64,000 nt of DNA, from positions 558,131 to 622,130 of the forward strand of contig CBDFJG010000001.1 in the NCBI GenBank assembly GCA_965248445.1. The letters run 5' to 3'. Numbering within the stretch: the first letter of the stretch is position 1; every line of letters starts with the position of its first letter. The stretch is from Planctomycetota bacterium (GTDB lineage: Bacteria > Planctomycetota > JAJSAM01 > JAJVHW01). Of this stretch, positions 39,286-48,172 are shown piece after piece. The notes under the pieces were generated by a model that was not told the DNA's origin, did no database searches, and saw only the letters and a list, made by a program, of their open reading frames with translations. A program made the translations under genes and the position numbers.

Positions 39286-40527
39286 ATGACGACGGCAGGC
39301 GACTCCGGCGACCCTCTGATGGTCGCGTTCTCGGGCGGACTCGACACCACTTGGCTGGTGGCGCGATCACGTGAGATCGAGGAGCGACGTCCGGTCATCA
39401 CCGTGACGGTGGACACCGGGGGGTTCTCGCCCGAGGAGCTTCGTCAGATCGAGGACCGCTCCCGCCAGGCCGGAGCGGCCCGGCACGTCCTGATCGACGG
39501 GCGGCAGTCGGTGTTCGACCGGTTCGTGCGGTTCCTGATCGCCGGAAACTGCCTGCGCGGCGGGTCCTACCCGCTGTGCGTGGCCGCCGAGCGGATCGTG
39601 CAGGCCGAGGAACTGGCGTGCGCCGCGCGGACCTCCCGCGTGCGCACCGTCGTCCACGGCAGCACCGGGGCCGGCAACGACCAGATCCGGTTCGACGTCG
39701 CGCTGGCGGTGCTGCTGCCGGAGGCCGAGGTCCGCGCCCCCGTGCGGGAACTCAGTCCCTCGCGCGAAGAGGAGTACGCGTTCCTCGAGGAGCGCGGACT
39801 GCCCGTGGACCGCGCCGCCAGGACGTACTCCGTCAACCGCGGGCTCTGGGGCACGACGATCGGCGGCGGCGACCTGCACCACCCGGAGAAGCCGATCCCG
39901 GCGGACTGCTGGGCCGACACGGCGGATCCGGATGCGTGCGACGCCGTGGGCGAGACCGTGGCGGTGACGTTCCGGCAGGGCGTGCCCGTCGCGCTCGACG
40001 ACGCCGAGATGTCCGGGCCGGACCTCGTCGCGGCGCTGAACGAACGCGCGGCGGCACAAGGCGTCGGCCGCGGCATTCACACCGGCGACACCATCCTCGG
40101 TATCAAGGGACGCCTCGCGTTCGAGGCTCCTGCGGCGGCTGTGCTGGTCTTCGCGCACCGCGAACTCGAGAAGCTGGTGCTCACCAAGCGCCAGATGGAG
40201 TGGAAGGACCGCCTCGGCGCGTACTACGCCGCGCTGGTCCACGAGGCGCTCTACTTCGACCCGGTGGCGCGGGACATCGAGGCGTTTCTCGCGTCATCAC
40301 AGACCACGGTCACGGGCACCGTGCGCGTGCGCTGCGTGCGCGGCCGCACCGAGGTCGCCGGGATCGAGACCGACGCGTCGCTCATGGGGCGGCTCGGTTC
40401 GGTGTACGGCGAGGGTGCCGGCGCGTGGTCCGGCGACGAGGCGCGCGCGTTCGCGAAGCTGTACGGCTTGCCGTCGGTGCTCGCGGCGCGGCGGGACGCG
40501 GACCTGGCCGACGGCGGTGCGTCATGA
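39286..40527 (+). CDS. argG: Argininosuccinate synthase
   Basis: AFSGGLDTT PP-loop motif, overall length 413 aa, first gene of the arginine cluster. Confidence 0.9.
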   Translation: MTTAGDSGDPLMVAFSGGLDTTWLVARSREIEERRPVITVTVDTGGFSPEELRQIEDRSRQAGAARHVLIDGRQSVFDRFVRFLIAGNCLRGGSYPLCVAAERIVQAEELACAARTSRVRTVVHGSTGAGNDQIRFDVALAVLLPEAEVRAPVRELSPSREEEYAFLEERGLPVDRAARTYSVNRGLWGTTIGGGDLHHPEKPIPADCWADTADPDACDAVGETVAVTFRQGVPVALDDAEMSGPDLVAALNERAAAQGVGRGIHTGDTILGIKGRLAFEAPAAAVLVFAHRELEKLVLTKRQMEWKDRLGAYYAALVHEALYFDPVARDIEAFLASSQTTVTGTVRVRCVRGRTEVAGIETDASLMGRLGSVYGEGAGAWSGDEARAFAKLYGLPSVLAARRDADLADGGAS

Positions 40528-41537
40528 AGACGCACCTCGACAAGATCGCTTCCTGCACCATCAACGCGAAGCTCGACCGCGAGGTCGAGGTCAGCGACCA
40601 GCTCGCGCCGGAACTCGGGCGGGTGGTCGTCGTGCGCGCATTGCGCGAGAAGACCGTCTACGACAAGGTCGAGCTGGTCAGCGGCCGCATGGCGAAGATC
40701 AGCAAGGACGACGTGATCGCGGGTGTGCTCGGCCGGCGTCGCGCGTTGCGCGGCTTCGTCGGTGACATCCCGGACGAGATCCGCGTCGGCGACCGGGTGC
40801 ACATCCTGAACATCGGCGGCGTCGTCGGCGTCGTCGTATCGGGCAACCTCGACCTCGGACAGCCGCTGCTCTGCGAGGTCGTGGGCGCGGTCATGCACAA
40901 CGGCGAACCGGCCAGCATCTCGAAGGGCATCCCGCCTCCGCCGGACACGCTCGGTGACGTGCCACTGATCCTCGTCGAAGGCACGTGCATGAACTCGGGC
41001 AAGACTTACGCGGCTGCAACGCTCATCCAGAAGCTGACGCAGCGGGGCTACCGGCTGAACGGCGCGAAGTTGACGGGCGTCGCGTGCATGCGCGACCAGC
41101 TCAACATGGAGGACCACGGAGCCGTGCGCACGAAGAGCTTCCTCGACGTGGGGCTGCCCTCGACCGTCGGCGTCGACGACGTCGCGGGCGTGGCGCGAAC
41201 CCTCCTCGCGGACCTCGCGAGCGACAAGCCCGACGCGATCATCGCCGAACTCGGCGACGGCATCATCGGCTACTACGGCTGCGACAAGATCCTGGCCGAC
41301 CCGGAGATCCGCAGGGCGACCAAGGCGCACGTCATGTGCGCCAACGACCTCGTCGGCGCGTGGGGCGCGGTCGAGGTCATGCGCAAGTGGGGTCTCGAGA
41401 TCGACGTGCTGACCGGACCGGCGACGGACAACGACGTGGGCGAGGGCTACGCGAAGCAGGAACTGCGGCTGCCGGCAGCGAACGCACGGCTCAACCCGCA
41501 CAAGCTCGCCGACCTGGTCGAAGGCCTGGTGTTCTGA
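40524..41537 (+). CDS. P-loop-containing protein of unknown function embedded in the arginine operon (possibly DUF1611/DgcN-like)
   Basis: 337 aa; ATGA overlap with argG stop and TGATG overlap with argC start; Walker-A-like GTCMNSGKT. Family assignment is from recollection and unverified. Confidence 0.55.
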   Translation: MKTHLDKIASCTINAKLDREVEVSDQLAPELGRVVVVRALREKTVYDKVELVSGRMAKISKDDVIAGVLGRRRALRGFVGDIPDEIRVGDRVHILNIGGVVGVVVSGNLDLGQPLLCEVVGAVMHNGEPASISKGIPPPPDTLGDVPLILVEGTCMNSGKTYAAATLIQKLTQRGYRLNGAKLTGVACMRDQLNMEDHGAVRTKSFLDVGLPSTVGVDDVAGVARTLLADLASDKPDAIIAELGDGIIGYYGCDKILADPEIRRATKAHVMCANDLVGAWGAVEVMRKWGLEIDVLTGPATDNDVGEGYAKQELRLPAANARLNPHKLADLVEGLVF

Positions 41538-46757: not shown

Positions 46758-48172
46758 CCAAACGCAAGAACCCCGCGACATCGCGCACATCCAAGCGGGG
46801 CCTGTGGGGCGCACGGTTCGACGGCGGACCGTCGGCCGCGATGCGCGCGATCGGGGACTCGCTGCACGTCGATCAGCGTCTCGTGGACCAGGACCTCCGC
46901 GGGTCGATCGCTCACGCGCGCATGCTCGGAGACCAGGGCATCCTACGGAAGGCCGACGCACGGAAGATCGTGAGCGAGCTCGGCAAGATGCGACGCGAGA
47001 TCGCGCGCGGGGAACTCGTCGTGGAGGGCGCCGACGAGGACGTCCACTCCTGGATCGAACGCGTCCTGACGGAGCGGATCGGCGACGACGGCGCACGGCT
47101 GCACACGGCCCGAAGCCGCAACGATCAGGTTGCCACGGCGTTCCGCCTCTTCCTGCGGGACGGGACCGCGGAGGTCAACGACGCTCTGCGCGCACTGCAG
47201 TCGTCTCTGGTCGCGCGGGCGGCCGAGATGATCGGCGTCATCGTGCCGGCGTACACGCACCTCCAGCGGGGCCAACCTGTGCTTCTGTCGCACCAGTTCC
47301 TGGCCTACGTGGAGATGCTCGAGCGCGACCGCGGACGGTTCCTCGACCAGGCGCGCCGCATGAACGAGTGCCCGCTCGGCGCGGGCGCGGCAACCGGCGT
47401 GCCGTATCCCATCGACCGCGCCGCGACGGCGAAGGAACTCCTGTTCGATCGGCCGACAGCCAACTCCATGGACAGCGTGGCGGATCGCGACTTCGCTGCG
47501 GAGTGGCTGGCCGCAGCGGCAATCCTCGCCGTGCATCTCTCGCGGCTGGCCGAGGACATCTGCCTATGGGCGTCGTCCGAGTTCGGGCTTCTCTCGCTCG
47601 GCGACGCGGTCTCGACGGGCTCGTCGATCATGCCTCAGAAGCGCAACCCCGACGGCGCGGAGCTTGTGCGCGGGAAGGCCGGTCGCGTGATCGGCTCGCT
47701 GGTGTCCCTTCTGACGACCCTCAAGGCGCTGCCGCTGACGTACAACCGCGACCTGCAGGAGGACAAGGAGGTCGTGTTCGACGCGCTCGACACGTCCCTC
47801 GTGTGCCTGCGCATGCTGGACGACACGCTCGCAGAGAGCCGCTTCGTGCCGGAGGCGGCCGCGCGGCTGCTCGAGGGCGGACACCTGCTGGCGACGGAAC
47901 TGGCGGACTTCCTCGTCGGGAAGGGCGTCCCGTTCCGACTCGCGCACGAGGCGGTCGGCGAGGTTGTGAAGGAGTGCGACGACCGAGGCGTCGACCTCTC
48001 CGAGCTGTCGGAGGAGGACCTGGTCGCGCTGCACCCGCGCTTCGCGGACTGCGCAGAGACACTCGACTTCGCCAGCGCCGTGGATCGGCGCGACCACCTC
48101 GGGGGCACGGCGACGAAGCGCGTACGCGCTGCCATCCGCAAGTGGGTGCGCCGCCTCGCGCCGCGGAGGTAG
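46754..48172 (+). CDS. argH: Argininosuccinate lyase
   Basis: Fumarate-lyase signature GSSIMPQKRNPD; 472 aa from ATG at 46754 (the ORF track extends an N-terminal artefact from 46205). Confidence 0.9.
   Translation: MTKRKNPATSRTSKRGLWGARFDGGPSAAMRAIGDSLHVDQRLVDQDLRGSIAHARMLGDQGILRKADARKIVSELGKMRREIARGELVVEGADEDVHSWIERVLTERIGDDGARLHTARSRNDQVATAFRLFLRDGTAEVNDALRALQSSLVARAAEMIGVIVPAYTHLQRGQPVLLSHQFLAYVEMLERDRGRFLDQARRMNECPLGAGAATGVPYPIDRAATAKELLFDRPTANSMDSVADRDFAAEWLAAAAILAVHLSRLAEDICLWASSEFGLLSLGDAVSTGSSIMPQKRNPDGAELVRGKAGRVIGSLVSLLTTLKALPLTYNRDLQEDKEVVFDALDTSLVCLRMLDDTLAESRFVPEAAARLLEGGHLLATELADFLVGKGVPFRLAHEAVGEVVKECDDRGVDLSELSEEDLVALHPRFADCAETLDFASAVDRRDHLGGTATKRVRAAIRKWVRRLAPRR

Follow-up and report, generated by a model that had tools for sequence, protein, structure and literature searches.

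Positions 39286-48172 of a 64-kb stretch of Planctomycetota DNA (64,000 nucleotides of contig CBDFJG010000001.1, hereafter the window) carry eight plus-strand open reading frames (ORFs) that, on the basis of Pfam and NCBIfam matches, make up a complete arginine-synthesis operon. We conclude, with a probability of about 0.65, that this operon encodes a linear succinylated arginine pathway whose first enzyme is the product of the second gene, g2 (40524-41537). In the proposed pathway, g2 would convert L-glutamate to N-succinyl-L-glutamate, probably from succinyl-CoA by analogy with the enzyme DgcN, and would take the place of a GNAT-type ArgA or of ArgJ. ArgB, ArgC and ArgD would carry N-succinylglutamate to N-succinylornithine, the transcarbamylase ArgF' would carbamoylate N-succinylornithine to N-succinylcitrulline, an M20-family enzyme would remove succinate to give citrulline, and ArgG and ArgH would convert citrulline to arginine. 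We infer the reaction of g2, its acyl donor and the succinyl specificity of all the pathway enzymes from sequence and structural comparison.

The operon order is argG, g2, argC, argD, argF', argB, the M20 deacylase gene and argH. Consecutive genes overlap at all seven junctions, by 4, 1, 4, 8, 1, 4 and 4 nt from 5' to 3', and the overlap sequences include ATGA, TGATG, GTGA and ATGCGTAA; the initial annotation had described eight genes chained by overlapping stop and start codons, and this description holds throughout. These tight overlaps suggest translational coupling of the operon. The eight frames have GC3 values of 0.86-0.91, and the window as a whole is approximately 69% GC. The same eight-gene order recurs at a related locus, L001, where the g2 homologue is 59% identical and the downstream flanks are different, and it recurs across phyla as well, so the arrangement goes beyond chance.

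Seven of the eight genes could be assigned from Pfam and NCBIfam. The first gene, argG (39286-40527, 413 aa), encodes argininosuccinate synthase with the Pfam domains Arginosuc_synth and Arginosuc_syn_C, and falls just under the TIGR00032 cutoff (266 bits, cutoff 268). The argC product (41537-42604) matches TIGR01850 at 335 bits (cutoff 234). ArgD (42601-43767, 388 aa, GTG start), an N-acyl-ornithine aminotransferase, matches Aminotran_3 (E = 1e-97) and reaches 366 bits with TIGR00707, the acetylornithine/succinylornithine transaminase family, which is under the cutoff of 410. ArgB (44761-45672, 303 aa), an N-acyl-glutamate kinase, scores 237 bits with TIGR00761 (cutoff 151) and matches ArgA models over the kinase half only (positions 10-292 of 441); a bifunctional ArgA/B was ruled out for this 303-aa protein, which has the kinase domain alone. 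The last gene, argH (46754-48172, 472 aa), encodes argininosuccinate lyase (TIGR00838, 546 bits, cutoff 280). The transcarbamylase and M20 genes are likewise assigned and are described below. The exception is g2 (337 aa), for which neither Pfam nor NCBIfam gave a family match. The initial annotation of an eight-gene arginine operon is therefore right for seven arg-type genes, while the eighth, which is no recognisable arg gene, had not been singled out.

Pfam and NCBIfam searches found no ArgA, ArgJ or GNAT domain in any operon gene. The search covered the 64-kb window of the source genome, and none was found among its other GC3-supported ORFs that were scanned, the ORFs of insertion sequence (IS) elements at 14-32 kb having been judged by eye only. 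A small GNAT protein hidden between genes was also considered, in the gaps of 81 homologous clusters; the ORFs in these gaps encode tRNA_bind, glyoxalase or SH3 proteins, and never GNAT or ArgJ. Because g2 is the sole unassigned gene and glutamate N-acylation the sole unassigned step in the operon, g2 is the candidate for this step, and we predict that it is probably the N-acylglutamate synthase. The earlier observation that the cluster has no ArgA-like or ArgJ-like gene was correct, and extends to GNAT families, but it no longer poses a puzzle, given that g2 is a strong first-step candidate.

The g2 protein consists of a beta domain (residues 1-143) and a P-loop domain (residues ~145-337) resembling dethiobiotin synthetase (DTBS) and DUF1611 proteins. 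Its P-loop, GTCMNSGKT (residues 153-161, nt 40980-41006), has the DTBS-type spacing GTxxxxGKT. In an alignment with DTBS, Lys182 (41067-41069) falls where DTBS has its second Lys, and Glu242 (41247-41249) lies within a Walker-B-like 'AIIAE' segment. P83, G159, K160, T161, K182 and E242 are invariant in 49 members of the g2 family, down to 27% identity, and as judged by this alignment the P-loop, second Lys and Walker-B-like Glu form a complete set in the family. A fold search placed g2 nearest to the solved structures of DUF1611 proteins and DgcN (PDB 7xrj, deposited as an N-acetyltransferase). DTBS also resembles the C-terminal domain, and SIMIBI P-loop proteins (HypB, UreG, MinD/ParA) are among the fold-search matches as well. 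At the sequence level, the only PDB matches are SRP GTPases and dethiobiotin synthetases, and no PDB entry matches the N-terminal beta domain. With Pfam DUF1611 (PF07755), g2 reaches 15 bits, short of the gathering threshold of 25, over profile positions 12-43 of 201, which correspond to the P-loop only; the DUF1611-type N-terminal domain was not found ahead of the g2 P-loop domain.

DgcN acetylates D-glutamate in an acetyl-CoA-dependent reaction (EC 2.3.1.312; EC entry quoted in PMC11747546; PDB title of 7xrj). The DgcN/DUF1611 proteins (7xrj, 2g0t, 2obn) share with g2 a GTxxxxGKT-type loop and, if our prediction is right, a glutamate substrate and N-acylation chemistry. They differ from g2 in sequence, with only 13-16% identity, and in their N-terminal domain; g2 is moreover predicted to act on L-glutamate with succinyl-CoA and to have a biosynthetic, not a catabolic, role. 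Provided that g2 is the synthase, the analogy with DgcN makes succinyl-CoA its probable donor.

Enzymes such as dethiobiotin synthetase, CobB/CobQ and CTP synthase phosphorylate a carboxyl or carbamate group to activate it. By comparable chemistry g2 could be an ATP-dependent ligase that turns succinate (or acetate) into an acyl phosphate on its P-loop and couples it to the amino group of glutamate, which we consider unlikely, although this alternative survives best. It would agree with the DTBS spacing of GTCMNSGKT, with the alignment of K182 to the second Lys of DTBS, with the invariance of G159, K160, T161, K182 and E242, as expected of a working Mg-NTP site, and with a list of sequence-level PDB matches made up of SRP GTPases and dethiobiotin synthetases alone. 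BioD and related SIMIBI ATP-dependent ligases resemble g2 in P-loop spacing, in the conserved second Lys and in an acidic residue after a hydrophobic strand, but they show no significant family-level sequence similarity to it, and g2 has an extra N-terminal domain and no linkage to biotin genes. No nucleotide-specificity motif was identified in g2, and all known N-acylglutamate synthases use acyl-CoA; both points count against a ligase. The one characterised DUF1611 enzyme, classed as acetyl-CoA dependent under EC 2.3.1.312, does so too. Were g2 such a ligase, it would provide a CoA-independent entry into arginine biosynthesis in hundreds of species from several phyla, and its N-terminal beta domain, unmatched in the PDB, would bind glutamate or succinate, or mediate feedback by arginine.

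The acyl group of the succinylated pathway that we prefer is assigned from the properties of ArgF' (43760-44761, 333 aa). By profile comparison, this protein is an acyl-ornithine transcarbamylase of the N-acetylornithine (AOTC) or N-succinylornithine (SOTC) type and not a canonical ornithine transcarbamylase (OTC): it passes NF003384, the N-acetylornithine carbamoyltransferase model, at 366 bits (cutoff 288), and fails the OTC models at 181 bits (cutoff 306) and 171 bits (cutoff 281). The motifs SLRTR (residue 48), HPLQ (residue 148) and HCLP (residue 289) are present. DxxxSMG was searched for in the protein and is absent, with AKAW in its place, where AOTC has AKSW. The closest PDB entries are those of Xanthomonas campestris AOTC (231-233 bits), headed by the E92A mutant 3l02 (233 bits), followed by Bacteroides fragilis SOTC (1js1/2fg6, 194 bits), and canonical OTCs reach at most 126 bits. 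The initial annotation had noted that the carbamoyl-phosphate and HCLP motifs are kept and DxxxSMG is lost, had assigned the enzyme to the N-acetyl- or N-succinyl-ornithine type, and had proposed that the acyl group is retained through carbamoylation, and all three statements are supported here. An acyl-ornithine-type ArgF' together with an M20 deacylase gene before argH makes such retention almost certain.

Which acyl group is carried had been left undecided between acetyl and succinyl, and can now be refined. Ala91 of ArgF' (codon GCG, 44030-44032) aligns with Glu92 of Xanthomonas AOTC, which is residue 112 of the structure chain owing to a 20-residue tag. Glu at this position, the mark of a strict AOTC, is thus replaced in ArgF' by one of the four residues (A, P, S or V at the Glu92/Pro90 position) that mark an SOTC. 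AOTC in which A, P, S or V replaces E92 is reported to take N-succinylornithine as its substrate instead (Shi et al., 2007; cited by both 10.1101/2024.10.14.618325 and PMC7311316). Among 54 aligned ArgF' proteins, comprising that of the window and 53 adjoining g2 homologues, position 92 is T in 31, A in 14, Q in 4, S in 3 and V in 2; a further g2-linked ArgF', at L087, has Pro, and Glu occurs in none of the 55 examined. On account of Ala91 and the reported effect of E92A on AOTC, the acyl group is likely to be succinyl rather than acetyl, the best PDB match being that same mutant, and ArgF' is predicted to be specific for N-succinyl-L-ornithine. At a second position, Lys302 of Xanthomonas AOTC, which we take to be a carboxylated lysine, ArgF' has Val (44642-44644); the 54-protein alignment has V, I or E there, with one gap, and never Lys.

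The M20 protein (45669-46757, 362 aa) is an ArgE/DapE-type deacylase with catalytic (Peptidase_M20, PF01546, 108 bits) and dimerisation (M20_dimer, PF07687, 65 bits) domains, and its gene does immediately precede argH, as first annotated. Among NCBIfam models it scores highest with dapE-gram_pos (164 bits) and AcOrn-deacetyl (159 bits) but stays under both cutoffs; no equivalog model is reached at cutoff, so the models do not fix its substrate specificity. The best PDB match is 3ct9 (179 bits), and Xanthomonas acetylcitrulline deacetylase 2f7v reaches only 68 bits. As the top NCBIfam model is a desuccinylase and the protein is far nearer to 3ct9 than to 2f7v, the M20 enzyme supports the succinyl route and is a candidate N-succinylcitrulline desuccinylase. 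We take 3ct9 to be a Bacteroides thetaiotaomicron structural-genomics target, possibly BT3549, for which N-succinylcitrulline desuccinylase activity has been proposed.

The window resembles the Xanthomonas route (AOTC 3kzc and others, 2f7v, ArgA/B) in the transcarbamylase subfamily, in the shared SxRTR, HPxQ and HCLP motifs, in AKxW for DxxxSMG and in deacylation after carbamoylation. An acetyl route of this kind, with g2 producing N-acetylglutamate, ArgF' a true AOTC and the M20 enzyme an acetylcitrulline deacetylase, nevertheless seems quite unlikely. The passing score with the NCBI N-acetylornithine carbamoyltransferase model would fit it, as would the higher score of ArgF' with Xanthomonas AOTC (233 bits) than with Bacteroides SOTC (194 bits) and the use of acetyl-CoA by DgcN, the nearest characterised relative of g2. 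It is opposed by Ala in place of Glu92, the E92A mutant being reported to prefer N-succinylornithine, by the lack of Glu in all 55 g2-linked ArgF' proteins, the window's included, and by an M20 enzyme only distantly related to the Xanthomonas acetylcitrulline deacetylase. Further differences from Xanthomonas are Val for Lys302 and an ArgB that has no acetyltransferase domain.

A succinylated arginine pathway is known from Bacteroidetes, where it comprises an SOTC, an N-succinylglutamate kinase, the GNAT protein BT3761 and the M20 protein BT3549 (PMC7311316). The pathway proposed for the window is similar in that the acyl group would be kept through carbamoylation and taken off acyl-citrulline by an M20 enzyme, in the small non-acidic specificity residue of the transcarbamylase (Ala in ArgF', Pro90 in B. 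fragilis SOTC), and in the relationship of the window M20 protein to DapE-type desuccinylases. It differs in the first enzyme, which is a GNAT protein in Bacteroides, whereas the window has the P-loop-fold g2 and no GNAT; in addition, ArgF' is nearer to Xanthomonas AOTC, and the host is a member of the Planctomycetota with ~69% GC.

Homologues of g2 are numerous and closely tied to arg genes. One search found 3927 family proteins at E <= 1e-3, and another found 1336 clusters at 50% identity, of which 131 have E <= 1e-30. In species-representative genomes, a scan with alignment A1, which is biased towards closer relatives of g2, gave at least 596 matching stretches. The nearest relatives come from Planctomycetota metagenome-assembled genomes (MAGs), at 80% identity, which places the window in that phylum, and the family names seen are all 'hypothetical' except for one protein mislabelled as a molybdopterin-guanine dinucleotide biosynthesis protein. 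Other arg genes are present at 79 of the 81 loci with a g2 homologue, which span at least seven phylum-level groups (Planctomycetota, Acidobacteriota, Chloroflexota, Gemmatimonadota, Cloacimonadota, Sumerlaeota and others). Where the contig leaves room, argG lies directly upstream (64/78 loci) and argC directly downstream (67/77 loci). The M20 gene is found at 14 of the 81 loci, mostly in Planctomycetota and Thermoanaerobaculia. A 38%-identical member sits in an argR-argG-argH-g2-argC-argF'-argB cluster, and the ArgF' of this cluster has Pro at position 92.

A 34%-identical homologue from an Aenigmatarchaeota MAG lies outside any arg cluster (L085 8001-9997; L086), overlapping a RimK/glutathione-synthetase-type ATP-grasp gene, with a second such gene convergent. 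The wider g2 superfamily is thus not restricted to arginine synthesis, and its substrates may include other compounds that contain glutamate. In Chloroflexota the pathway is divided between an early and a late cluster, and g2 occurs in either. The Chloroflexia MAG LS1_sbin.44 has two g2 copies that are 87% identical (L040, L073); the first copy is part of a g2-argC cluster, and an argG-g2-argF'-argH cluster holds the second. Separate paralogue clades for the early and late Chloroflexota clusters were considered and are not supported, as no distinct clade was seen.

One family member, P0165, is a fusion of an N-terminal g2-like part with a C-terminal amino-acid-kinase domain that is most similar to ArgB. 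The g2-like part is 43% identical to g2 residues 40-303, and the kinase domain is 32% identical to the ArgB of the window. The full ORF, including the N-terminal part, is 673 aa long (L082 7860-9881, also L083 and L084). Three contigs, from three different JGI samples, were retrieved and give the same called product; four carrying contigs are reported. An assembly or read-through artefact was rejected because the same product came from three samples and because g2 and argB do not usually adjoin each other. The fusion gene has an arginase-family gene as its neighbour and is not part of an arg operon. The glycine motif of the kinase reads 'KIAD' as compared with 'KxGG', and the domain may be regulatory, as in ArgA. 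In joining a putative synthase to the kinase module that would act next, P0165 is comparable to classical ArgA and to bifunctional ArgA/B. Classical ArgA (kinase + GNAT) carries out the reaction proposed for g2, and P0165 pairs the same modules; the fold, however, is P-loop in g2 and GNAT in ArgA, the window has separate genes, and the order in P0165 is reversed, with the putative synthase N-terminal. An apparent g2-argC fusion, P0235, looks frameshifted and was set aside.

The GapMind 2026 preprint predicts that ACG33_RS14135 (A0A127FCT3) of Steroidobacter is an alternative N-succinylglutamate synthase (bioRxiv 10.1101/2024.10.14.618325). Its passages on this protein describe a hypothetical protein found 'virtually always' in arg operons, with remote Foldseek similarity to 7XRJ, whose homologues never co-occur with ArgA homologues and have neighbouring ArgF' proteins in which position 92 is A, P, S, V, I, T or Q; the preprint lists its prediction as awaiting experimental test (10.1101/2024.10.14.618325). 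Location in arg operons, remote similarity to DgcN (7XRJ) and a neighbouring ArgF' without Glu92 are common to ACG33_RS14135 and g2, and some of the clusters described carry an M20 argE candidate; Steroidobacter has no M20 gene, whereas the window has one. Because all features of g2, including the unusual Gln variants, fit these descriptions, by which alone the two proteins were compared, g2 and ACG33_RS14135 very likely belong to the same family. Searches starting from a 'Pseudohongiellaceae' g2 homologue returned Planctomycetota-like proteins only, those starting from the 38%-identical P0404 returned proteins of Chloracidobacterium, Acidobacteriota and Planctomycetota, and neither returned Steroidobacter; the cluster names of 10 g2-family representatives are all 'hypothetical', with no Steroidobacter entry. 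The preprint passages concerned with ACG33_RS14135 do not mention the ArgB-domain fusion, the unmatched N-terminal domain or an ATP-dependent alternative. The literature already contains this type of pathway and, as an untested prediction, the candidate enzyme family. The window is a new, clean example from the Planctomycetota, and its remaining interest lies in the donor used by g2 and in the unmatched N-terminal domain.

These comparisons also bear on whether g2 is an enzyme of the pathway at all. It could instead be a P-loop protein with an accessory or regulatory role, such as a sensor, an assembly factor or a metallochaperone serving the M20 enzyme, with the true synthase encoded elsewhere in the genome. 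Many SIMIBI proteins, such as the HypB, UreG and MinD/ParA proteins recovered in the fold search, are chaperones or regulators, the archaeal homologue lies outside an arg cluster, and the synthase search was limited to the 64-kb window. We regard such a role as distinctly improbable: g2 is found in clusters both with and without an M20 gene, the latter being present at just 14 of 81 loci, so a role as M20 chaperone is excluded; its fusion to an ArgB-like domain has the same make-up as ArgA; and DUF1611/DgcN and DTBS, to which it is structurally closest, are enzymes that act on small molecules. The statement in the preprint that ACG33_RS14135 homologues never co-occur with ArgA homologues (10.1101/2024.10.14.618325) points the same way. 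An ArgJ-like transacylase, which would return succinyl from N-succinylcitrulline (or N-succinylornithine) to glutamate and so perform both the first and the deacylation steps, is very hard to sustain. In its favour, most clusters beyond Planctomycetota and Thermoanaerobaculia have no M20 gene, Steroidobacter is described as lacking both ArgA and ArgE (10.1101/2024.10.14.618325), and g2 lies between argG and argF' in some Chloroflexota clusters (L057, L073), but the window operon has its own dedicated M20 deacylase, the P-loop fold, in which GKT, Lys and Glu are all intact, suggests that the substrate contains a nucleotide and speaks against amide-to-amine transfer, and the g2 proteins of the 'late' Chloroflexota clusters form no separate clade.

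Several points weigh against a succinylated pathway initiated by g2. The published proposal for this enzyme family is itself a prediction only. The kinship of g2 with ACG33_RS14135 rests on matching descriptions, and the N-terminal domain of g2 is unlike that of DUF1611. The commonest residue at position 92 in the linked ArgF' proteins, Thr, lies outside the set of substitutions tested experimentally, to which the Ala of the window belongs, and ArgF' is overall nearer to Xanthomonas AOTC than to Bacteroides SOTC. An ArgA, ArgJ or GNAT gene could also lie outside the 64-kb window.

If g2 is the first enzyme of a succinylated pathway, standard annotation would score the first arginine step as lacking here and in hundreds of g2-bearing genomes of Planctomycetota, Acidobacteriota, Chloroflexota and others, and would call the linked transcarbamylases 'N-acetylornithine' specific, probably wrongly. 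Predictions of auxotrophy and cross-feeding for these largely uncultured groups hinge on both annotation points. None of the characterised N-acylglutamate synthases has a fold related to that of g2, and no relative of the g2 N-terminal domain has a solved structure. The window operon is compact, complete and apparently translationally coupled, and it can be cloned whole.

Downstream of the operon, a NUDIX hydrolase gene (48182-48760, plus strand) starts 10 nt past the argH stop. Its product matches Pfam NUDIX and is CoA pyrophosphatase-like (NF007980, 115.6 bits, cutoff 134). A terminator scan of the region found no terminator-like site after argH, and the NUDIX gene may be co-transcribed with the arg operon, in which case a CoA pyrophosphatase-like gene would be expressed with an operon in which succinyl-CoA may be consumed. 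Its presence in the cluster is not conserved, since L001 lacks it after argH. Upstream, a terminator-like hairpin (39147-39163) parts argG from the preceding gene, but such sites are not enriched in the region (2 found, 3.2 expected). A sigma-70 promoter scan upstream of argG gave no match. Beyond the hairpin lie minus-strand genes (34919-38585) for an ABC-2 permease/CPBP (Rce1-like) protease fusion, an ABC ATPase and a PP2C phosphatase, which are syntenic with 2642-6347 of L001, where g2 is only 59% identical. The single Rfam match in the window is a tRNA gene (34812-34885, minus strand).

In other g2 clusters, a tRNA_bind (PF01588) protein of ~120-155 aa recurs between argC and argD in Pyrinomonadaceae/Blastocatellia. 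Loci with a small protein at this place are L034, L056, L059, L060, L064, L070, L072 and L075; at L034, a 3-dmu-9_3-mt/glyoxalase-fold protein takes the place of the tRNA_bind protein.

Elsewhere in the window, insertion sequences are abundant at 1975-3438 and 14000-32000. IS66-family transposase ORFs lie at 1975-3438 (minus), 22426-23901 (minus), 27996-29627 (plus) and 29963-31438 (minus), and two copies, beginning at 22395 and 29932, show 100% identity along at least 300 nt. Within ISXO2/IS1595-like transposase fragments, 20531-20960 and 25189-25618 form the arms of a perfect inverted repeat of 430 nt; IS110-like and DDE ORFs are found between these elements, and GC falls to 0.53 at 18-20 kb. 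The remaining features recognised include minus-strand genes for a phosphate acetyltransferase (3538-4467), an AtuA-family protein (4443-6329), a large FG-GAP repeat protein (6330-8858) and a thiolase (11161-12525), and NosD/beta-helix proteins at 9416-10039, 20921-22270 and 32209-33408. A minus-strand ORF at 53993-55057 encodes a Cys/Met-metabolism PLP enzyme that matches profile positions 17-272 of 381 only, and its C-terminal translation looks out of frame, which could be due to a frameshift, a pseudogene or an assembly error.

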